Position numbers and translations under genes: made by a program | Notes under the pieces: generated by a model | What the model was told of the DNA's origin: nothing | Database searches by the model: none | What the model saw: only the letters and a program-made list of their open reading frames with translations | NCBI RefSeq assembly: GCF_032062105.1 | Contig: NW_026927214.1 | Coordinates: forward strand, 1 to 64,000 | DNA: 64,000 nt | Reading direction: 5' to 3' | DNA from: Saccostrea cucullata | Lineage: Eukaryota | Shown: positions 5,476-55,721 of the stretch, piece after piece | Layout: the number at the start of each line of letters is the position of its first letter | Position numbering within the stretch: position 1 is the stretch's first letter

Positions 5476-6292
5476 AGTTGTTTACAAAAATGTATTAATT
5501 AAAATTTCTGTAATTTGTGTTACCTTAACATATACGTACAATGCCGACCTTTGTTATAACACGAAATTAATTGCATGTTTTCCCGTAAACAGGACACGAG
5601 TTCAAATTTTTCATAAATCTTCCTACCCAAAAGAAACGTAAAGCGTTTTTTTTTTTTTTTAAAAAGATTTATTACATTTTTCTGTAACACATGTATATTA
5701 AACTAAACAGAGATACAAAGGAAGCTGCGTCTGTCAATTATCGCCTTTACAAATATATTATGAAAATTAAATTACGTATCAATGATCCATTCCAGTAAAA
5801 TATTCAACTGGATAATGAAGGTGAATCCCTGTACACAACTACACAGTACTCACGTAGAAGTATTTTTTTGACAGGAGAGACATAAAATGTTTTTATAAGC
5901 ATGTAAGAAGCATCTGTCGATCAATATCAATAAATACAAAATAAAAACACGCCATTATATGTTAAGAATCCTTTGAAAAATTGTATGATTTCCCTAAGAC
6001 TGTAGACTTAAGCCTAAACTTGGGAAGAGTGACTTTCCTCGTTTAAAGGGCGGATGATATAGCCTATGGTTAGGCTAATGGTTAACCTAGTTCCGGTGGG
6101 CCACTTTGCCACCTTAACAATATGGTGTGCGCGAAAATATGCCCAACAGTACTAGTATCACGCTGTGCTTTGATTCCATCTTATTTACAATAATATCAAC
6201 GTTTTTTAATTTTTGTAGCAAGAATTTCGCTACACTTCAAAATAGGCTTTCTGTTTCATAGTTATTGTAACCATTCAAGTTTTATGTCTGGT

Positions 6293-9200
6293 TCATCTCT
6301 CAAGAAACACTGCATACCACAGAGAACCTTTGTCTTCATATGCGACAACAATACGAGGCAGTTTGCCGTACATCTCCTCTCGCTTTATAAGTTTTGTCAT
6401 GTCTTTTACAGATAGTTTGGAATTGAATAGCATCGAATTCACTTTATCATTAACAAATACTGCTGAAAATTGGGGTTTTCCGAAGTAGTCTGCTTCGTCT
6501 AAGTAAACTAGTTTCCTCTTGTACCTGGCGTTCCTGTTGACCAGTTTATAGAGTCGTGACTGCGGGATGTCTTCATAAGATCGATAATCTTTTTGGGATT
6601 TCCTGTCCTCGTCCTCTTGGAGAATAAAGCTTACAAGGCCATCCACGCCATTGTACATCAGCGACTGCGATGTTGGAATGTAGCCTTGCTCGGAGTAAAG
6701 CTCGATCAGTTTTTTGTACGACTGTGTGTAATGCTGAACACCGTATCGTATGACTGTCGAATTTTTGTAGGAATTTTTCCGAAAGATTGCCAAGAAAACG
6801 GAACCACGGTGGGAATGCGACATATAGTTTTGCATGTACGTTAAGTTGAAACCTGATTTCTCCAGGTGTAATTTATGTTGGGTTAAGCTTGATTCCGTCA
6901 GTCCTGGTGTAATGACAACTTTATCGAAGAGTGGCTTGTCTGATTTCTGAGCAATAACGACAAAGTATGTATTCTTCAGGTACGAAAAACCATTTATCCA
7001 CTTGATGTCGTAACGAAGGAGGGACAGAGCGCGAGTATAACCTTGGAGATGGTGTTCTTCCAGTTTATATTTTATTACTTGTTCTATTTTCCCGGATTTT
7101 GTTTTTACGTCAGCCAAGTCATCAAGAAACTTATTTTCGGCAGACCATGTGTTCTCTGCTTTCACAAGGCCATGAATTCCACTTTTTAAAGGTGTGAACA
7201 TCTGACCCGTGAAGAAAGCAGCATATGCTGTAGGGGTCGTTGTATCAGAATTCTGCTGCTGTGCATCCTTGACTAGAGGACCATGATGGAAGAACAACAA
7301 ATCATCCGTGAAGAATTCCCCCTCCATCCAGATAGCGCCGCGACTGTTAACACTGAATCCAGCCCCGATCCAGGTACTGCTGTGTTGAACTGGGGCTGCA
7401 GAAGGTTTTGCCATTAAGGACTTGAGAGATTTATCAGACAAAAGCTTGAAGTCTCCTGACCCATCCAAACAAGAAGAAAATCTCATGATGTCATACATGT
7501 TCGATTCCCATCCCAATGCGGGTCCAACGAACTCGGGGCTCACTTTTGTGACGTCACTCATTAGCGGTTCGTTTGTGTCACGTGTCTTTGTGAAGACATG
7601 TGGTCGTCCAATTTTCGTGTACATCATTCCACACGGAATCATTACGTGCTTTTTGACGTATTCGTCATAATCAAAATCCGTTATCATTTCGATGATTTGT
7701 CCTAGAATAGCGTACCCAAGGTTTGACACAGCTGAGCGTGTACCTGGGGTAAAATCAAGGGGTTTGGACATCATAAACCGAATGACATCGATGGGGGTTT
7801 TGAGCTCTGGAACGTTCATTTCTGCAGAGATGTTTTCTACGTTGTAGCCGTTTGCTATAAGAGCGGAATTCAGAAGCGGTTCCATCAGTTTGGACTTGGT
7901 GTAATCCCATCCCCCGGTGTGTCGGAGTAAGTGGTCCACGGTAATGTCGTAGATCCGCCGATCCACCGTCGCCTTGTTCCAGGGTTTGATCACGTGAAGC
8001 AGCCCGTCTTTTCCGAACACTTTAGCGTTAATGTCAAGTTGTCCGTCTTCCACCAGCTTCAGGATCGTCACTGCCGTGAACGCCTTGGAGAAGGAACCGA
8101 CCGGAATCAGGTTGTGGACGTAGATATCCTGATGCTCGTGGTTTTTACCGTAACCTTTAGCAAACGCTAATCTGTCCTGAATCATTACCCCCACCTGTCC
8201 CCCTTTGTAGCCATTGTCTGACATGTACTTCACAAACGATCTGTCAAAATCCGCACTGGGGAGAGTCCCGGCTGAAAAAAGGAAAAGAACAATGTAGTCT
8301 CGAAAATGCCTCTGTAATTTTACATTACATAGAGGGACAATTTCTAAAACGAAGTAAATTATTGACAAACAAGTTGATGAAACAAGAATATCAGCAGTCT
8401 CGTTTAAAGTCATCAGTTCGTAAGTTCTATGGTCGATACAATGAGCTTGTCAGCAAATACAATTTATCATTGAATCAAATACTAACTGACGTTTTTCATA
8501 CTAAATGTTAGGCCATTATTGTTAGGCCATTATTTACACGCTGAATTGACGACGGATTTTTCTGTTATTTCCCGATCCCGAGCATACGGCGGTTGTGACC
8601 GGTCGGCAGGGTATGCTCTTTCCCCCATGGCACCTGCACACCTCTGACGTTTTCTGCTCCTATTTTGTATTGTTTAATGGACTTTTGATCTTGAATACTG
8701 TTCGTCATCTCTAAATATATGTCATTACTTTCAAATAGTAATTACAAACTTTGTACTAATATAACTGCTGTTTTAGGGATATTTGATGATATATTTTTGT
8801 TTTGTTTTGTTTTTTGGTTTGTGTGTTTGTTTTATTTATTTATGTAGCTATTTCTTGAATATATAGTGCTAAAACTTTTTGCACTGCTAGCAGCTCGGTC
8901 TACGATCTCATCGAAGTTTAAGCTTTATAAATTTTGCTTCTAAAATATCTCCAATTTACGGTCAAATAAAGTGACAAAGCGGCCACTTAATGATACGGCG
9001 TTATGTTTCTAATTCCCTGCCGACAGAAATGATACAGTTGCCGACCTCCCTGGCGATTGTACTTGATATGAAGCATTGACTTTCAGTTGTCCTATAGTGC
9101 AGACTGACTGTTTTAAACGTCTATCACTAACAAGACGAACCCGACACTTGATTCAAGAGGACGAACCCGACACTTAATGCAAGAGAAACATGTCAGATAT

Positions 9201-12200
9201 TTCACCGGGTCTAAATACACCTCCTCTACCCCTGGCTGGCGGCCATTGTTATTGGTGGTGTGGAATTTGACAGAAGAAATGCATTAAGTAAAGATCTGTA
9301 GTAACGCGAAACTCAGGAGACAAAACCTGGTGTATTTTTAAAACCATTTACATTTCTTATGCAACAATCTTATCTCAAACGTATATAGTTATATTTTTTG
9401 CCATTTCTCATTATAAACTCCCTGACTTGAAATAAGATCGTAGGGGGACATATTTTTGGACTTCGCCGCCGTGGTTTACTTTGTAAGGGTTAATTGTTTT
9501 CGCCGATAACATCGCATCTTCTTTTTGTTGTATAGGGGTAAAAGTACAGAAATTTCTTAAAGGATATTGAACCGTTAACTAGCACCAAATTGTTTTCCGC
9601 ACGTATGGTTAAAAAAATTATATTTATTGAAACATAGTTGTGGCCGGCGGGACTGCATGTTGTGTAACCTACCCCGAGGAGAACTTATTCTACGCCGTTT
9701 ATAAACCAATATTTTCATGACTTTTCAAAAACAGCGTGTATGTTATCCTAAAACTCGTGTATCGTGGGAGTTTCTGTATAAAAACACGAGGGAAATCTCT
9801 GCCTAAAGACGGAATTACTTCTAGTACCCGATGTTATATTAAGGGATTGTTGAAATGATACATCTCTGTGTTTGCTCTTAGCATAAGTCTACAAACCTCT
9901 ATAGAAAAAACACATCTTAAGGATTAAAATTGTTTAGCTACTCTGCTTTTGTTTTCTTGTACGTAGGTAAATGTTAGTTTTGCGGAACCTTTGATAAAAT
10001 TTCGTTTTTTCAGGTCTAACCTTGACGGAGAGTTATTTTGTTAACTTAAGCTGGTTTTTTAAGTCGGGTTATTTTTTCTGGGTGGTTTGTCTTTATTGGA
10101 AGAAAGTTACTAATGGATTTTAAAATTGCAAGTGGTGTGTTCATATTAAAACTTTAATTATATATATTTTGTCACAGTTTTGACAAATAATGATAAAACA
10201 TGGTCGTTTTTATGGCCTTTAAAATATTCCTATGAAAGAATTTCATTAGTTGTGTCTCTGTCCTGTGGATTTTGGCCTCTGATGGTTAATGATGCGACAA
10301 CAGAAATGTTTCCTCCCTTTAAGCAAGTTATACACCTGAGAGCCTGTACAGTTAGTAATTTACCGACTTATTTTGAAATTTGTTCATCACCCTTGTCGTA
10401 AATAGCTATTTAATGTCATATTTTTATAGATTGTGTGCTTTGGATTACTTTTCTACATTTAATAATGGCGAAACTCTACATCAGAATTATTTTGCTAAGT
10501 TAGGTTGCGGGTATCTTTGCTCCGCTTGAACTTCTATTTGTTCTTACCCAAGATTAAAGCTTTAGAACATTATGAACCACGAGGTTCACCATCGCACTGT
10601 TTGGTCGATGGTGCGAGGACGATGGCGCGAAGGAGATGAAGCGATAGTGAGTATCGCTCTCTCCTCACCGTACCATCCATATGTCGTGGTCATCTAGCCT
10701 CATCGATGTCATACCATCGAGTTATCGTGCTATCGTTTTACTGTGTCATTTGTTCGCCCTCATCGTTTTGTTGTGCCATCACATCTGTCATCACGCTATT
10801 ACTTTATTTCATCGCGTCATCATTATTTATATAATCGAATTATATCGATCCAAACCTCAATGATGCGATAGTGAACTACATGGTCCTATCCAGATTTCAT
10901 TTGGTAAAGAATAACATTTTACTCCTACAGTTTCAGCCCAAACAGTCCTAAGAGCTTAATAGAATTTAGAATACGGAAACTTGACACAGTAGCTAAATCT
11001 TTTTGGAAGGATCATGATCACAGAATGACATATAAGAACTCTCTCATCATTATCTCGGAAATTTACCCAAGTAAGCTCCTCTCTATATACAGGGTTGTCA
11101 GTAATCAAATATGCAGGGTTTTCAGAGAGTCACTCGTTTCACAGAAGTTTCAGGTTTGTCCTAACACAAGGTCATTTAAAAAGGTAAAAGTTATAAGAAT
11201 TTTCGTTCGGAAAATGATCAAATACTTAAAGCAATATGAGTTGCATTTTCGATTCGGCAGAGGGTGACATAACACTCCAGGGCTTTCCTGTCACCGAGGG
11301 GCAAATATTCTGGTATGTCACCCTCGAAGCCATGTGATATATGTATAATGACTCGCTTATACTGTACTCTCTAACTGTTAGGAATACGAAAAAAAATATT
11401 TTGCTGTTCAAATATGTTATTGTGATAAATTTGTATGTAACTTAAACCTTTATGATCAATTAGACTAAAATAAAGCAGACGAAAGACTTCTATATTCAAC
11501 CCAACATACAGTTTTACATAAGAGATCATAATAAAGGACGAGTACAGGACGACAATAATGTAAATTCTGATTCAATGGAAGCTTATAAATAGTTCTTTAA
11601 TCGCAAATATAAACAACAGAAGTTTATTAATGTTCTTTTTTTCTGTCATTGAAATAGTTATAAACAATTTTGCAACAACAAAAAAATTCCTAAATCAAAG
11701 TTGCAGCTCATATTGCTTTAAGATGTTTTGTTTGAAGAGAAAAAATAGCAACGTGACGGAGTTAGCTGTCTAAGACAATTAATTTGTTAAGCTGGGTATG
11801 CTGAAGTTTATAGGGAGAGTTATTTCTGAGACGCAGTGTCAGTATCAGATTTTGTCGTTCAAAAATATAGCATTTCAAACAGGAGTTTATCTCACGGGGA
11901 AATAAGTGCCTTAAATTTTAATTCCGAATTCAGAGGTTATAACAACTAACGTACTGCAAAGTGAAATCCTATTTTCGATAAGATAGCAGTCCTTTACTTA
12001 TTTTATGTATACAAGGACAGTTATCTCTAGCTCAGCCCTCCGATGGGGTACCCCTGGTTTTATGGTTTGGACAAATCGAACTTTTCTTGCGTGAGCGTTG
12101 CTTCAACCTAAGACATTGCCTTCGATATGCACAGAAAACTGAAACGTCAATCTTTGATAAAGGTTTAATATCGCATTTAAAATTAAAGTTTTATTGGCGT

Positions 12201-14245
12201 CTGGGCTTAGAAAACCGACATTAAATTGACACATTGATGTTATCTGGCTTGGGTTTGACAATCCAGTTTGATGTTATCCTGTCATTTGGTATGCCGTATT
12301 GCCCATGTGGAGGTATCACACGAAGTTCTATATCAGCAATTCTAACCGAAAAAATCTGATAAATTGTATGCAGGTACACGGTCAATCCGGGTATCGGGCC
12401 ATGTAACGAATTCGAATAAACTGCCACCTTTATTTCCGTGTGCATTATGTCTGTTAGTCAGGGAAGCGTACAAGAGAACAAAATGACTGCACCAGAGCGG
12501 GTCATTCATAAAATGAGACCATTGTTTTAGGAGTGGAATTTAATTCATGTAAATATGGGCCATGAAAACAAATATTTAGTCCACATTAGTACCAACCTAT
12601 TTTTTTATGCTTTTTTATATGAAAAAATATGATTACCATTTTTCGTAACAAGACAAACGTACCTGCACGCATAAGTTGATGCCTAACACAAAATATCTCG
12701 AGGTTACATTTTTCATTTACATTTTTCATATATTTACAAATTTTTCTTAAGAATTCAATTTGTATGAGAAATATAAAAACAGAAAATATTATAGTGTCAA
12801 AGCAATTCCTTTTTTCGATTTTATATCCTTTTATGACTTGTTAATTGATTTATATTTCATTATATCAAAAGCCTTCATGCGCTCGGTGACATTTACTTCA
12901 AAATAATAGTTAACTCTTTCTTTCCGTACATATGGCGTCATAATCAAAAACAGTTAAAGAACTTAATTAAATATACCTAAGTTTATTGTTGGTATTTTTG
13001 TCATAAAACTAAATTCCTTTTTTTCGAATTATGACTTGTTAATTGATTTATATTTCTACAAAAGCCTTTAAGTTAACTCTTTCTTTCCTTAGATAATCAA
13101 AAACAGAGAAACCTAATATTGTTGGTATTTTTGGAATACTATGGGTGGTACTGTTTAACACCTCTGTTTTGATTTTAATTTTTGAGTACATTTTCCAGGT
13201 GTTTTAGCTTATTTTTGCTCTCTGTAACCTGTTTTAGCGTTCTGAAGCACAATTCAAGATAGCATGTTAATCTAAGAATACCGGTGATGTTTTAAAAATA
13301 AGCTGTTTTCCGTGCTAATGAGGAAAGAGAAGCACGAATAAAGAATTTTATGCCTTGCATTCCTACAATTAGTGCTGTACATCTAGAACCCATTATTCTT
13401 TGATTACCGCTGTGTAAATTTTCTCGTGTTTTCCGAGTTTGTTGCAAACTTGGGGAAAGGAGATGTGCTGCAGAACCAAGGTTTCAATTTGTAAAATTCT
13501 ATAATTTAACTAAACATGTACTAAACAAACTATAAATCGAATAAAACATTTTAATATCAGAATCTTGATTTGCGTGTTTGAGAAATTGAATTGAAATTAG
13601 GAAAATGTCATTTAAATGTAAACTGCAGAAACCTTCTTAACTTTGACATTTGACATTTCGACTCATTAAAACATTTACACGTATAAATGCCTTCTGTTTT
13701 AGAAAGGCGTCTTCCTCAATACTTGATCTTTTTACCCGCATACCATGGCGTCTACGATTTGATGGTCTTTTTTTATGGAGTCAAAGGATTTCTTGTCAAG
13801 TAAAATGTTTATTTTTTCTTTCTTTTCAAGTTTTTTCAAACAATTTACTTGCGATAGGCCTTGGGCTTGTCTACTAATAAAGTTTCCTTGCTCACATTTA
13901 ACAAATTTTCAACATAAATCTTGTCAAATTCAGGGAATTAACACAGCTACATGCACAGATACATGTTGGCTTCATTTGCTTAATTTATTACGCGTAACGA
14001 AGAAGAGACATTTAGAAAATTGCTACTTTAATAGTGAAAATAATCGATTAAAATTAAATTGGTTTTTATATATACCGATTTTCCGTTTCATATTCAGCAG
14101 AAGTATAAATGTCATATTAACTTAAACAATGGCTCCATAATTCATGACTTTGAATTTTCTATCATTATTCATTTTTTTTGACACTGTGTGTAATATACTT
14201 ACCTGTACAAAAAACAGCCAAACTAAGGAAGACTAGCAATCTCAT
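6293..14245 (-). CDS. Secreted serine beta-lactamase/PBP-fold protein with five C-terminal BTRD1-like (polyglycine-hydrolase-like) repeats; exons 14245-14203 and 8271-6293, ~673 aa
   Basis: Exon 1 encodes MRLLVFLSLAVFCT with donor G|GTAAGT (phase 1). It joins in frame at a TTTTTTCAG acceptor (8271) to AGTLPSADF. SxxK motif SFSK at 8095-8084; also LLRHTGG and F-PG...SNLGY. The ORF-track N-terminus (8272-8413) is intronic. Confidence 0.85.
8370..8700 (+). mobile_element. 3' fragment of a Penelope-like (Naiad-type) retroelement
   Basis: Translates ...QEYQQSRLKSSVRKFYGRYNELV...LTDVFHT, followed by the conserved CGGCGG.TGTGACCGGTCGGCAGGG...GGCACCTG motif. Confidence 0.75.
10570..10900. mobile_element. 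Degenerate (CGATG/CATCG)-rich foldback element, same family as 61342-62471
   Basis: Shares GTTCAC.ATCGCAC and GCGATAGTGAAC...CCTATCCAGATT ends with the element at 61342-62471. Confidence 0.6.
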
Positions 14246-16480
14246 TTTAGCGCATATTCCAAGTAGAAAGAAAAAGTATTACTAAAACGTTTTAATCCCA
14301 AAACACAGTAAAATCCCCAATTTAGACAGAGAAGGAAGTCACACCATTGTTTCTTAATTATCCATTGAAGTAATTAACTATTTTCCAACATAATGCGAAG
14401 AAGCTGTGCAGTGTTTGTAAGATTTCACGCTTGTTACATGTGAGATATGATAATATGCATATTGGTCACGTGGTCTTTACGGAACTGTGGACCAAACCAT
14501 TCACAAAAGAGCTACATACCACAGAAGAAAGATTTAACAAACCATTGAGCAGTTCAACAGTTGACTGGGAACAAAAATTAACTGGGGCATTTAAAGTTTG
14601 TCTAATGTGTTTTTGCCAGTAGTATGGTCTCCTTGAAGATGTACATTGTATATAATACTGGTGCTAAAGAAGAGTCATTACAGACATAGAAAACAAGTTT
14701 TTTTCTGACGGCAGACTGTATCAAACAGCACCTGTTATTTGTAGTCTAAACACTTGCAACATACTGCATTTTTTTTCTTAATCCAGTGTTATCCATGTTC
14801 ATTTTTTTCAATGAAAAAAACTCTTTTAATCGATAGAATAGAAGGTGATAATCATGGTAATCTCTAAATGTTCTCTAAGTATGATAACCTTATATTTGTA
14901 CAGTATTGCATGCCAAATTGCGCAGACCATGCGATCTCACATTTATGTGAATTTACTGTGCATAATACACAAAAGACAACCTTTTTCAGTTCATTAACTT
15001 GGTTAAAAAAGAGCATAAAGTCTGGAGAAGGGTACACGCAATGTTTGAGGGGATACAATGTACCCCCTCAATCGAGCAGAGCGGTGTGTTGGTAAGACAC
15101 CGTACGACTCGCAAGAGAAGTACCTAAGTGAGTCGATAATGCATCCATTACTTAGGTTATTTTGACCCAGTTCTAACTTTTCAATTGACTTAAATTTAAA
15201 GAAGTAAAAATACTTTACATTCAATTTGCTTAGAGACTGATACGAAGTGCACCAATTATTTATACATAATTTTTATACAATGTATACGACATTCTTGTCA
15301 AAAGAACTGACGACACGGTCCTGGATTTTTATATCATTTGTGATATACCAAATAATGATTGTTATTAAAAATGTATAAACATAAAAATATGTTTTATCAG
15401 AAATCCAACTGTATTATGCCAATTGTATTTTCAAAATATTAGAAATGAGCACTGAACAAAAATATTAAATTGGAGCTTTTTCCCTCTTTATATCTTGTAA
15501 AGATCGTAATTTCAAGAAAGGTGTGGTTTTTGTCGAAAAGGAGAGAAAGACGTTATTTGTATAGGCCGGCGATTGTGCATTATATCAGTATCAGCGGTGA
15601 GAAAAGCGTGAATGTTGTAAGGTTATCTGCAGGTAATTACAAAAATACCTGGTCAGGTATCCGACAAAGCGCAACTCTATGTTTCCATTACTCCACCCTA
15701 TTTAATGTGGGTCTGCATATAGGAGCTGAAATTACAGATACGGCTTTCTTCGATATAGATATTTTTCGTAATTGTTTCTTTCTGAGGTATTTTGCTCAAG
15801 TATACTTCTGGATCTTTTAAAGGTCATGTCGACCGAAAGAAATGTTAAGGATAATTTTAAAAGGATTTTTGAAAGAGTTACTTACTCGAGTTGGATTTTT
15901 TTCTGCAATAGAATTTCAATTGCATATGTGCCAGGCATAAGGTACCTCAATTCAATCAAATGAAGTAGACTGAAGATACGTGTTGTATAGGGGATAGATT
16001 TAATTCAAATCACAAATCGAGAGGTGTACTATTAATATACAACCTGGAGACAACAGAGCCATTATAAAGCATTCTAAAAGACTAAAATAAATTGATAAAA
16101 ATGCAGTAATTTAATTTTTCAAGTCTGAATCCAACAAATTGTTACAATTGCAATTTGGGTTAAGCATGTGCATGTATGTTACATTTTGGAGTGTATAGCA
16201 CCTAGTGGTAAAACCAACAATACCGCTAACTAATTTATACCTAAAGGTACACAAAAATGATAATATTTTAAAACTTTGATACTGGAGAGATGCCATGAAA
16301 ATTTGGTATGCTCAACAGCCTCAACTGTTCGTTGACTTTGACCTCATCATACGTAGATCTAGCTGTGGGGTCGTCATCTTACTGGTAAATAAAAATGGAC
16401 AACCAGAAACCAGCGCGCAGCTAATATAAATTGTCCGTGCACTGTGCGAAAATGAAAATTTTAACGCAAATATTGAATTC

Positions 16481-22660: not shown

Positions 22661-25600
22661 TCACATAGGGATCCAGTCAGGCAAATAGTAGTCCTCTTTC
22701 TTAAATAAAGCGGCCAGACTGGAGTTGGGTGTAGGGTAGCCTTTATAGTAGATAGTTCTACCTTTGATTAGCCAAGCAGTCCACCAGCCGTAACTCCCAA
22801 CGGTCATCACAGCATGGTTACAGTTGGAGAGTATCGCCACGTCCATTTCAGGAGAATTACCCGGAGGAATGAATACAGTATCCTCCTTCTTCAGGTTCTC
22901 TCTACACCACTTCAGGTCATCAGACCCCACGACAAAGAGAACCTTGTTGTTGAAGTCTTTACGGAATTTGTTCATGGCTCTCTCGAGGTAATCAACACCA
23001 GCCGTTGTGTATCCGTAGTTCACAAAGTTTTTATTATTTTTCATGTCCCCTCTGCGAACATGAACAGCCACGAAGACAATGTCGGGGCTGATTTTCTTCT
23101 CTGATATTACAGACTGGAATGTGGATTTGGCTTTTAATGCTATGTGGTCTTGAAATGTATATTGTTTTCGGAGTTCCTTCTCTGCATGTTGAAAGTATTT
23201 CCAGCTCTGAAGGTAGCCTTTTATCCATACGTTCTGTGACCCACCCAGCGACATCAGGCCTGGCTCAAAGGTACAGCCCTTCTTCTCGTTATACCTTCTG
23301 TTCATTTGGATTTCAGGCCTTGTATTGCCGAGAGTAATTTTGAAAATTCTACGAAGCAGGGAATTGGGAGGAATAACAGGTATGAGATTATTATGCTTAG
23401 CAATCCCAAACATGGAGGCAAATTCAAATATTTGATTCCCGAGCCGTCCTTCAAAATTGACAGTAACGTAGTGTGTGGGGGCAGGCCTAGTGGTGATTGG
23501 TCGGCTGGGAGGCCTCGTTAATTGACTGGATTTATTACGTGCAGACAAAAATTTCATCTGGTAAATATCTTTGGCCTTTTCTGTCTTTGGTCTATTATTT
23601 AAAATGATTGAAGACTTGGAGAAGTTAAATTCCATCATAACAAATGCAGCTCCAAGGACAAACACAACACAAAGACATGCTGCACATCTTCTTAGAAAAT
23701 CTGAAAAATGAAAATAAAATATAAAGACATGCTGTGGATCTTCTTAGTAAATCTGAAATATACAAATAAATGGGACTTTGATCATTATTCTAAAAAGTCA
23801 ATATTTAATCTTTAAGTTAGCAAGAATTAATTTTAGTGAATTTGTGACAAATAGAAAGATAAAATTTCTGCTTATAAGGTTTATCATTACTTATCCAAGT
23901 TCTTTACATAAATGTTTATCTATTTTAATATTCAAGAGTTTTCTATAAATATGAGCTTATTCAGGGATTAGTGTCCTTTACTTTAAGAAAAAGAAAAGAG
24001 TAGAAGACCTAATTAATATGCCAGTGGAGAAGAAACAAGAGGCTCCTGGGTCACAATGCCCACCTGAGTAATTGTGGCCTTTCTTATTCATCAGCAGATT
24101 CTTTTTCCTAAGTATATATTTCCTATTTAAAAATTGATCATCCATTGTAGCCCTACACTATAAGTGGGTGTTATGATTTGAACAGATTTGAATCTAATTC
24201 ACTTATGGATGCTTTTTCTAAAAATAAATATGACAAATCATGACTTGGCTCTTCCATCGCAGGGCTCTAATTGGCAACTAATTTATCTGCCACGTTTCGT
24301 AATTTCTCCATATACATGTATTGGAGATCATCTTTAATTGAAAGAGCAGAAAAGAAGATATCTTGTTTTCTTTGTCATTGTTTGTTAGTTGACAGTTTGT
24401 CATTGCTTACTAAGTATCTCTATTAGGCAGTTGTAAAGACTTACTTGATGATATCAGGGTCATTTTCAAAAAAAGTCTATTTTTTGAATGACATATTTTG
24501 AAAAATGAAAGTGGTTTTACTATGATTTTTTCAACTTTACTTGAATAATATAGTAATAAACTACTAAAATCCACTGCATTGCATAAAAGAAAATATTTCT
24601 TTTAAAAAATATTGACATTTTATCTTACTCATTTAAACTTTAATGTCCTTCCTGTTACTTTCATAAAAAAGAGCTGTAAAACTCTATTTCAAAATTTTCA
24701 TCAAATTATCTTTTGTATACCGTTCATAAATGAAAAAATTATCATTGAATGCCAAGATGTTTGACATTCATCTAATATATGAGCGTTTAAAAGCATGTCA
24801 AACTACCATATACCAAACAGAAGCAAAATCTACGGGTTTTTCTTCATGAAAAGCCTTATTGCGGAATGTTTATATGCTATAGTTGAAAAAAAACATTCTT
24901 GTACATTATTTTTGTGATTAGAATAAACAGTTACAGAAAGTTATTTAAACAGGTGCTCTGCCAAAGCAATTTAAACTAGGAAAATATACTGGTAACAGTA
25001 AGGACACGGTTAACAGGAAGGACAAAACAGTAACAGGATGGACAAAACAGTGTAACAGGATGGACAATGAAATCTACATTTTAAATAAAAATTGACTTTT
25101 TTTAACTTTATTGGTTAGGAAAAGAGAAATAAATGTAGAATAAAAAAAATGATTTTGTCAAATCTGGCAAATTTGAGACAATAAAAGACATTTATGTCCA
25201 TCCTGTTACGAAATTTAATTCTAAAGTGCTATTAAAATATTTATCAGTTCAATTTTTGTTTATTAAAGGTACTCTATGCTGTTGCAAAACTAAGAATTTT
25301 TCATAATTTTAAGAAAAACAAATGATGAAACTTAAATAGGTATATAAATACCAGGATAATTTGTCCCTCCTGTTACAATTTTTGTCCATTCTGTTACAAG
25401 AGTGCATGTTTAAGTTATAATGGCACAATTTGAAGCACTAACTTATTTCAATATGATTTACGAAGTTTTTTAACATGTGTTATTAAACTTATATTACTTA
25501 GAAAAATAAAAGTAATTGTTTTTATTGTTAAAACTCAAGATATGAAGTCCAGTTTTCCTTACTGTTACCATATTAATGGTAACAGGAATGACAGTAACAG

Positions 25601-30451: not shown

Positions 30452-31142
30452 TAACTGCAAAACTGTAGTATTATGATTTTATATATGACCATAACACTAC
30501 AGTTCCCGTAATGCAAAAAAAGAGAGCAATTTACATAAGATTTTTTGCGCACTTTTGGAGAGAATTTCTCCAGTTTCCTTCATTGATCAACCAACATACT
30601 ACTTTCACTCACTAATTTTAGACACATTTTTTAACCAACCTTTGTATTTTATCCGCCTCCCAACCCATTATAATCGTCTATAATGGTGATGATAAACTAG
30701 CTTTACTTGTGTGGCGGTCAGCTGGATTTGATCACCGGTGGCCAGATCGCTCAGTTGGTAGAGCACTTGACCGGAGTTTCAGGGGGCCCGGGTTCGAATC
30801 CCGGTCTGGTCCGCTGCATTTTCTCCTCTCCCGTTACATTTGAAATGTCTGTTGGATTGCAGGAAATTCAAAACAAGCTGGTTTATCGCTTGTAGAGAAG
30901 ACTATAAAGGGTTGGGAGGTGAATAAAATATACAGATCATTGGGTAAAGAATGTGTCTAGAACTAGGGAATGAAAGGTAGATGACTGACCAATGCTGGAA
31001 ACTGGAAAACAATTTCCCTAACAATGCACAAAAAATCTTGCGCCATAAATTGCACATTTTAGCATCATGAGATCTGTAGCGTTATGGTCAAAGATAAATA
31101 GACAACCATACATAAAACCATAACACTACAGTTCTGCAGTTA
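30452..31142. mobile_element. Old foldback element with ~250-bp inverted arms, interrupted near its centre by a tRNA-containing solo LTR
   Basis: TAACTGCA.AACTGTAGT.TTATG inverted at both ends; CCTCCCAACCC/GGGTTGGGAGG and TAGACACATT/AATGTGTCTA paired. Confidence 0.75.
30710..30838 (+). mobile_element. tRNA-like sequence inside a 129-bp probable solo LTR (Helenus-like TRIM); not a canonical tRNA gene
   Basis: TGTGGCGG...CCGTTACA termini, CTTG/TTTG flanks, A box GCTCAGTTGG, B box GGTTCGAATCC, acceptor stem GGCCAGA/TCTGGTC, irregular 8-nt anticodon loop. Confidence 0.7.
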
Positions 31143-54863: not shown

Positions 54864-55427
54864 TTAAAAAGACCTCAGGAAAAGATAATTTCCCAAAATC
54901 AAAGCATAATGCAGCCAGTCAACATTGGGAAATCCCAGCAAGGATCCATCGGAACCAAAAATAAGTCCTGCAGCAACGTAGGTCACCCCTGCTCCAAGTC
55001 CAAAGTAGTTCTTGTTTACAAAGCTTAGCGTTAAGATCACCAGCATTGAGAATCCACTAGCTGCCTGTGTCGCCACTTCTTTGGTTTTTGGTGGGAGAAA
55101 TGCAGCCACAACAACCACCGCTAAAAGGAAAATAGCTATTTTGTTTGCTAGCAGTGCTGATCCGTACCTAGCACAGAATTCCATGGCGATCAGTGGTACG
55201 CCAGCTCCTGCAGCTAACCATGACAGAAATTTGTGACACTTAAAAATAATTCCTCCCTCGGGATACGTCATCGCAAAACGGAAGATTCCAAAGAAGGCGG
55301 CTGTGGCCTGAATGGAGAGTCCGGCAGATGCCTTGATTTTGTCCACTTTGTACCACTCCCATGCAACAAAGGACGCCACCAAACACAAAAGGAGGTCAGA
55401 AAAAGAGGTGCTCAGCTGCCGCGCCAT
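54864..55427 (-). CDS. TMEM276: Transmembrane protein 276 homologue, single coding exon, 187 aa
   Basis: Intact multi-TM ORF. STSFSDLLL, ASAGLSIQ, WLAAGAGVPLIA, VATQA, NYFG and DWLHYAL are collinear with human TMEM276 motifs as recalled. Confidence 0.8.
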   Translation of the reverse strand: MARQLSTSFSDLLLCLVASFVAWEWYKVDKIKASAGLSIQATAAFFGIFRFAMTYPEGGIIFKCHKFLSWLAAGAGVPLIAMEFCARYGSALLANKIAIFLLAVVVVAAFLPPKTKEVATQAASGFSMLVILTLSFVNKNYFGLGAGVTYVAAGLIFGSDGSLLGFPNVDWLHYALILGNYLFLRSF

Positions 55428-55721
55428 CTCCTTAAAATGATGGATAAAAAAAGTTGTGTAGAAAGTTTTATTAAATGTTAATTAAATGATGGATTAAAAA
55501 TAATGTATAAATTTAAGTATTATTATAAATCAGTCAAATGATAGGTTAAAAATACTGTAGAAAGTTTTGTCATATGTTAATCAAATGGTAGTTATGGAAA
55601 GCTAAGGCTGTTACCTAGCAAAATATATTATCACTACCTTCTTTTGTAATATCCACTAGGTATCTCAAGTTAATTTTATTTTAAAGGTGCATAGACACAG
55701 ATCAGAACTAAGTTTATACAG

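Follow-up and report, generated by a model that had tools for sequence, protein, structure and literature searches.

Gene structure and transcription

The window analysed here, a 64-kb stretch (64,000 nucleotides) of genomic DNA from the oyster Saccostrea cucullata, holds one copy of a minus-strand gene whose spliced frame of 674 aa is divided between two coding exons, arranged as follows:

14203..14451, minus strand: exon 1, comprising 5' UTR (to at least 14451) and 43 coding nt; a contig of X15 joins 14203-14451 to 8271
14245-14203, minus strand: coding part of exon 1, a predicted signal peptide, MRLLVFLSLAVFCT, its signal role proposed from hydropathy
8272..14202, minus strand: phase-1 GT-AG intron of 5,931 nt, joint 8271/14203, with CT..AC ends on the plus strand
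6293..8271, minus strand: coding part of exon 2, 1,979 nt, with the whole mature protein and the TGA stop at 6293-6295

The ATG lies at 14245 and is followed by a GTAAGT donor at 14202; the acceptor before exon 2 is a polypyrimidine/CAG signal at 8274-8272, from which the minus-strand frame at 6293-8271 runs stop-free for 658 codons and ends in a stop. After splicing, the protein begins with MRLLVFLSLAVFCTAGTLPS, and the same spliced N-terminus is found in P0002, a 98% identical protein from a 2.3-kb Logan contig. RNA support for the joint 8271/14203 comes from 7 reads in X21, 19 reads in X22 and one contig in X15, the joint not being listed for RNA run X2, and transcript depth runs on past the stop into a 3' UTR reaching about 5750-5850. 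The RNA joint thus bears out the original prediction, made from the sequence of the window, that a putative signal peptide occupies a separate exon and the mature protein a single one. Most of the RNA reads match the window at just 90-95% and so stem from other alleles or a close relative.

The exon-2 product matches an "uncharacterized" Saccostrea cucullata record at 658/658 residues, confirming the bivalve host that had been proposed, and is 92.5% identical to its S. echinata counterpart and 84-85% identical to those of Crassostrea virginica and Ostrea edulis. Exon GC is 0.446, against 0.42-0.45 in neighbouring host exons.

Other features of the window were recorded alongside the gene. An intronic segment at 8337-8711, outside the gene's exons, is a dispersed transcribed repeat element with high RNA depth and loose ends. 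On the minus strand, 22661-23743 is a single-exon open reading frame of glycosyltransferase family 11, alpha-1,2-fucosyltransferase-like (PF01531, E 2e-44); 54864-55481 is a hydrophobic frame of about 190 aa, likely a multi-pass membrane protein, with no convincing Pfam match; and 47627-48597 comprises two exon-like frames, one of them Cys/His-rich and neither matching Pfam, which presumably resemble CYHR1/ZFTRAF1. At 30740-30812 on the plus strand, ARAGORN finds a single tRNA-like element, its four-base anticodon undetermined, which is probably a pseudogene or a piece of a SINE.

A catalytic-type domain followed by a predicted five-repeat barrel

The models leave very little doubt that the oyster protein (P0001) consists of a beta-lactamase-fold domain and then a predicted five-repeat barrel of the polyglycine-hydrolase type, laid out on the minus strand as follows:

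7145..8254, minus strand: beta-lactamase/PBP-fold (S12-type) domain, residues about 6-375, from PF00144 and a structure match
6944..7087, minus strand: BTRD1-like repeat 1, residues 395-442
6776..6919, minus strand: BTRD1-like repeat 2, residues 451-498
6611..6757, minus strand: BTRD1-like repeat 3, the most divergent, residues 505-553
6449..6586, minus strand: BTRD1-like repeat 4, residues 562-607
6299..6433, minus strand: BTRD1-like repeat 5, residues 613-657

All five repeats were delimited by the structural model and profile comparison. Of the two Pfam families that the original prediction had named, PF00144 stood, covering residues 8-330 at E 2.7e-32 as the sole Pfam family in the window protein, and PF17660 (BTRD1) did not, giving no match there even at E<=10, though it is found in homologs: it matches 11 of 16 close homologs, five of them above the cut-off, and passes the cut-off in 12 of 13 more distant animal homologs. 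Databases already assign PF17660 to some family members.

The full-length AlphaFold2 model has two domains (pLDDT 85.6, pTM 0.88), and AlphaFold2 folds residues 395-657 into five strand-helix-strand-strand units, the predicted five-fold repeat that had been expected from the letters. Because catalytic-domain matches filled the full-length fold searches, the barrel was folded alone (pLDDT 95.0). The resulting model of residues 395-658 superimposes on residues 13-263 of chain A of PDB 7tpu, the fungal polyglycine hydrolase Fvan-cmp, with Z 25.0 and an rmsd of 3.0 Å over 246 residues, the next-best structure among the 48,161 chains compared reaching Z 5.7; Foldseek agrees, returning 7tpu at E 1.4e-5 as the only match with E<=0.001. 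The N-terminal model (residues 2-378) fits residues 284-616 of 7tpu with Z 26.9, other S12 enzymes reaching up to Z 30.2. Both domains of Fvan-cmp are therefore found at exchanged positions, and the order is reversed relative to the fungal enzyme, so that the domain pair and its reversal were both read correctly in the original prediction.

In sequence the repeats resemble one another weakly, with 6 of 10 profile pairs at probability >90% in a 48-row alignment, repeat 3 again being the most divergent, and only 3 of 10 pairs clearly above the best of 40 control comparisons in a shallower 16-row alignment. The nearest ESM Atlas clusters carry PF17660 and PF00144 (score 0.96); the match for the barrel alone, scoring under 0.9, is a lead only.

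Two animal clades with the same domain order

Full-length relatives with the enzyme-then-repeats order form two clades, A, which contains the oyster gene, and B, its paralogue. As drawn from the best 120-150 matches per homolog search, named members of clade A come from bivalves, gastropods, Lingula, hemichordates, sea urchins, a sea star, crinoids, a sea cucumber and amphioxus, and named members of clade B from molluscs, including cephalopods and a chiton, an annelid, Lingula and Montipora corals. The members of clade A form a single group (100/100) with deuterostome and protostome branches, and within this group molluscs, bivalves and pteriomorphs nest as expected from animal phylogeny; shell-less or shell-reduced lineages carry the gene too. 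That the family is at least bilaterian in age is hardly in question. Since orthologues occur across protostomes and deuterostomes and the paralogue reaches corals, the gene was not acquired by transfer in bivalves, as had been supposed.

Clade B (proteins P0104, P0110 and P0331-P0363; loci L155 and L157) keeps the Ser, Lys, Tyr and Asn positions intact together with an HTG-like third motif, and its sequences make it the best candidate for an active animal enzyme with the enzyme-then-barrel layout. A crude hydropathy test assigns a hydrophobic N-terminus to 17 of the 19 named proteins of clade A and to 1 of 24 in clade B. Introns lie inside the catalytic domain of clade B, at positions shared by two loci (L155, with five exons, and L157). 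On long contigs, several clade A proteins are almost complete but open with intron-like residues, a pattern that suggests that the single large exon of clade A is old.

A search of the open-access literature found no description of the oyster gene family, the available passages of PMC6641155, PMC9575672 and PMC4795696 being on other matters. Clades A and B thus apparently make up an old animal family that has gone undescribed.

Domain order and origin

Among 41 distinct fused genes of bacteria, 39 encode the repeats ahead of the enzyme, a tally that leaves repeat-only loci uncounted and includes about four repeat-first cases with weak catalytic-domain scores (11-23 bits). The enzyme comes first in the remaining two, L147:2497-4518 (G364:C6) and L148:1037-3988 (G003:C39), both from a Bacteroidota-phylum sample. 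A reversed order unique to animals, which the first 17 bacterial genes (17/17 repeat-first) had seemed to allow, is ruled out by these two genes. Both fall apart from the animal clades in the tree, one as a long branch, and the swap therefore happened more than once.

Five catalytic-domain trees, which hold no fungal Cmp, LACTB or protist sequences, place clades A and B among prokaryote-like S12 proteins without a starred sister group, and A plus B as a single clade is not rejected (AU p 0.358). These trees are compatible both with an acquisition from bacteria by early animals and with inheritance from older eukaryotes. Close to clade B, with weak support, lie the repeat-first protein P0115 and two giant-virus proteins (97/61; SH-aLRT 81). 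The viral proteins, encoded on giant-virus contigs (L150:3899-5173 and L151:3905-5224), belong to the same S12 subfamily; they are intact, lack repeats and have a hydrophobic N-terminus.

An intron-free body was taken at first as a sign of transfer, which it does not show: introns are present in the paralogue, and a retrocopy would have the same appearance. At close to even odds, we consider that the secreted, intron-free clade A is a retrocopy of the cytosolic, intron-containing clade B, placed behind a signal exon, with no separate bacterial acquisition. The rare domain order common to both clades, the shared intron positions of L155 and L157, the unrejected monophyly of A and B, and a denser sampling that puts only P0115 between them (98/78) argue for such a step; on the other hand, A and B are never sisters with starred support in any of the five trees, their repeat domains are no closer to one another than to bacterial repeats, and the same domain order arose independently in bacteria.

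A deeper history is also conceivable, with the odds leaning against it, in which the family descended vertically from early eukaryotes, sharing that origin with the fungal Cmps, and the barrel was shifted to the C-terminal end early in animal evolution, with no transfer from bacteria to animals. Consistent with it, the family profiles rank 7tpu first or second among PDB entries, above LACTB (120.8 vs 84.5 bits; 111.2 vs 69.2 bits), the giant-virus homologs and P0115 lie weakly near clade B (with the supports given above), and a single A plus B clade is not rejected. Against it, prokaryote-like single-domain proteins from metagenomes score up to 308 bits with the same profile that gives the fungal enzyme 121, and no named non-animal eukaryote is among the matches listed.

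Recent transfer from bacteria to a bivalve, or bacterial contamination, was suggested by bacterial-type domains on a single exon; it is refuted by the spliced transcript, the host-like GC of 0.446 and the Bilateria-wide orthologues with their species-like tree, leaving it a negligible probability.

Loss of the catalytic residues

Alignment places the three active-site motifs of the S12 fold as follows:

8084..8095, minus strand: motif 1, SxxK, intact as S59-F-S-K62
7721..7729, minus strand: motif 2, YxN, degenerate as V181-S-N183, which lines up with YSN in 7tpu and 4y7p
7319..7327, minus strand: motif 3 position, degenerate, with M315-E-G317 in place of H-T-G

The catalytic Tyr is thus Val181 in the oyster protein, a change that the original prediction overlooked along with the altered third motif. 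The latter, altered throughout clade A, is no sign of inactivity, because Fvan-cmp is active and also lacks it; the same paper notes that Fvan-cmp keeps the analogue of Tyr150 as a conserved residue (PMC9912923, in the part available). In class C beta-lactamases, a Y150F enzyme is described as deacylation-impaired (PMC7277225, likewise in part).

The loss of Tyr extends through the bivalves. With groups assigned from the trees, and once seven near-copies of P0010 and one fragment are set aside from the bivalves, the bivalve clade has Tyr in 0/16 proteins and Ser in 5/16, Lys and Asn being present in 16/16. Ser is kept by four oyster rows and Solemya, the rest having Ala, Gly or Glu, and the excluded P0010 near-copies have Ala at the Ser position wherever the site is present. 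Elsewhere the residues are better preserved, with Ser in 11/11 and Tyr in 11/11 of the gastropod/other mollusc clade, Ser in 12/12 and Tyr in 10/12 deuterostome-like rows, Ser in 29/29 and Tyr in 28/28 of paralogue clade B, and Ser in 322/326 and Tyr in 323/326 non-animal-like rows; other lophotrochozoan-like rows have Ser in 6/12 and Tyr in 5/13. A further set of clade A members (P0078, P0081, P0085, P0087-P0089, P0096, P0100 and P0103) lost Ser and/or Tyr separately from bivalves, with Asp, Glu, Gly or Gln at the Ser position. Judged from these alignments, conversion to a pseudo-enzyme seems to have recurred within clade A.

With its SFSK and VSN motifs, the oyster protein is likely a pseudo-peptidase. 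Its catalytic and repeat domains are 85 and 88% identical to those of P0003, 54 and 55% to those of Tegillarca, and 49 and 49% to those of Mytilus; the two domains are thus conserved to the same degree in bivalves, so that the gene is being kept even as its catalytic function erodes.

Proposed function

The reading we favour, at a probability of roughly 0.55, is that this transcribed and spliced oyster gene encodes a likely secreted member of an old family that has lost its catalytic Tyr and likely binds short peptides instead of cutting them. The loss of Tyr makes binding likelier than cutting, and the motif sequences make it probable that the protein has little or no turnover. In the mechanism we propose, the protein would be exported via the signal peptide predicted from hydropathy and exon layout. 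In the bilaterian ancestor the protein was probably an active, extracellular peptidase of the Ser/Lys/Tyr type, a state that the copies of gastropods and most deuterostomes seem to retain; Tyr would have been lost at the base of the bivalves and Ser later, in several lineages. Since the fold and both domains are conserved after catalytic loss, binding is what appears to have been kept, with the cleft possibly holding a short flexible peptide without efficient turnover and the barrel perhaps serving as an exosite or as an anchor to a partner or surface. With Ser59 and Lys62 retained, acylation or slow turnover by the oyster protein is conceivable, and another residue of the active site might stand in for Tyr.

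It is improbable, in our estimate, that serine hydrolase activity persists in the oyster protein through Ser59/Lys62 without Tyr, or that the protein is a covalent trap that acylates without release. The four oyster rows and Solemya retain SxxK, all bivalve rows keep Lys and Asn, and Y150F class C enzymes still form acyl-enzymes, as far as the available part of PMC7277225 describes; against this, 11 of the 16 bivalve-clade proteins have no Ser nucleophile at the same length and fold, and therefore whatever function bivalves share needs no Ser.

As to what a binding protein of this kind would hold, a microbial wall peptide containing D-Ala or Gly is our best guess, though the odds are against it. 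It is drawn by analogy with relatives, namely D-peptidases, the Gly-Gly cleavage of fungal Cmps and the bacterial fusion partners, and we reason that achiral Gly could fit D-specific pockets. D-peptidases are among the near PDB relatives by sequence, and among non-animal relatives picked for having fusions, seven are fused to amidohydrolase domains and one to a D-Ala-D-Ala dipeptidase; the fusion-bearing proteins and the animal clades occupy different branches of the subfamily.

We give little credence to the alternative that the protein serves the shell or the extracellular matrix in a structural or regulatory role, binding host proteins rich in Gly. It draws on gigasin-6, a beta-lactamase-domain protein of oyster shell that is possibly inactivated (PMC5854119), on a red-algal cuticle protein with the same barrel (bioRxiv 10.64898/2026.01.12.698930) and on the cutting of polyglycine by fungal Cmps (PMC9912923), each as given in the available part of its source. 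Speaking against it, the gene has orthologues in animals that build no mollusc shell (Elysia, hemichordates, amphioxus and sea cucumber), no gigasin-named protein is among the homolog matches listed, and shell proteome evidence for the oyster gene was not found.

The peptide-binding reading can be carried further, to a scheme that we regard as speculative and rather unlikely, in which clades A and B would be a fifth, overlooked animal PBP-like lineage pre-dating the coral-bilaterian split, with a cytosolic enzyme and a secreted paralogue digesting or sensing D-amino-acid/glycine peptides of bacterial walls, and the bivalve form would be a non-catalytic pattern-recognition receptor for peptidoglycan peptides.

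Comparison with known systems

The closest structural counterparts are the fungal polyglycine hydrolases (Fvan-cmp, PDB 7TPU; Bz-cmp and Es-cmp). These are secreted, as is predicted for the oyster protein; the predicted oyster model shares their barrel of five EHEE repeats (Z 25.0) and their catalytic domain (Z 26.9); SxxK is present and the third motif altered in both. They differ in that the barrel is N-terminal in the fungal enzymes and C-terminal in the oyster protein, in that the Tyr150-equivalent of YxN is replaced in V181-S-N, in identities of only about 9% and 21% in the two domains, and in the animal host, the substrate being known only for the fungal enzymes. Because domain order and Tyr differ, we do not file the oyster protein as a polyglycine hydrolase. 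The barrel itself is stated to occur in all kingdoms (PMC9912923, available part).

Uncharacterised bacterial serine hydrolases with PF17660 and PF00144 share the domain pair, and their catalytic domain falls in the same S12 sub-branch; unlike the oyster protein, they are overwhelmingly repeat-first, as tallied above, and keep their motifs intact, and their two reversed cases are not sister to the animals.

The metazoan LACTB family was surveyed by Peitsaro et al. in 2008, who, in the part available, define four lineages and require all three motifs (PMC2266909). Like the oyster protein, LACTB is an animal protein with a PBP/beta-lactamase fold of bacterial ancestry, and the survey's idea of peptidoglycan digestion resembles our ligand guess; in contrast, LACTB is mitochondrial, and the available passages describe no repeat-bearing lineage (PMC2266909). 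The oyster protein has the PF00144 domain and the S12 fold, but its version of the three-motif set SxxK, [YS]xN and [HK][TS]G is incomplete (SFSK, VSN, MEG), and it is outside the four LACTB lineages as the available part of PMC2266909 defines them. LACTB is also distant by score, at 25 bits against 146 bits for microbial relatives in a single-query search, in agreement with the original prediction, which had implied that the protein stands apart from LACTB-like ones.

Gigasin-6, compared here by description and name, is likewise an oyster extracellular beta-lactamase-domain protein proposed to be inactivated; unlike the protein studied here, it comes with no mention of a repeat barrel in the available part of its description (PMC5854119). 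Mollusc proteins of the "protein flp" type are represented by one Elysia orthologue, which carries that name as an automatic label. Assignment to class C beta-lactamases or to the named PBP families was rejected, the best NCBIfam match scoring 34.3 bits against curated cut-offs of 200-884.

Implications

To our knowledge, a single structure has been solved for the barrel domain and its function is not known, and the family formed by clades A and B supplies it with a conserved animal context. The story of a transfer into bivalves gives way to an old animal family with lineage-specific catalytic loss, and the oyster gene is no evidence for recent gene transfer or antibiotic resistance. The family adds a lineage to the animal PBP-like repertoire beyond those of the LACTB survey, as far as its available part shows (PMC2266909). 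It also offers a natural series, from intact proteins (gastropods, sea urchins and clade B) through Tyr-less ones (oysters) to those without Ser and Tyr (mussels, scallops and the ark clam), which makes the roles of barrel and cleft directly testable. If binding of wall peptides proves true, the oyster protein would be a new invertebrate microbe-handling protein.
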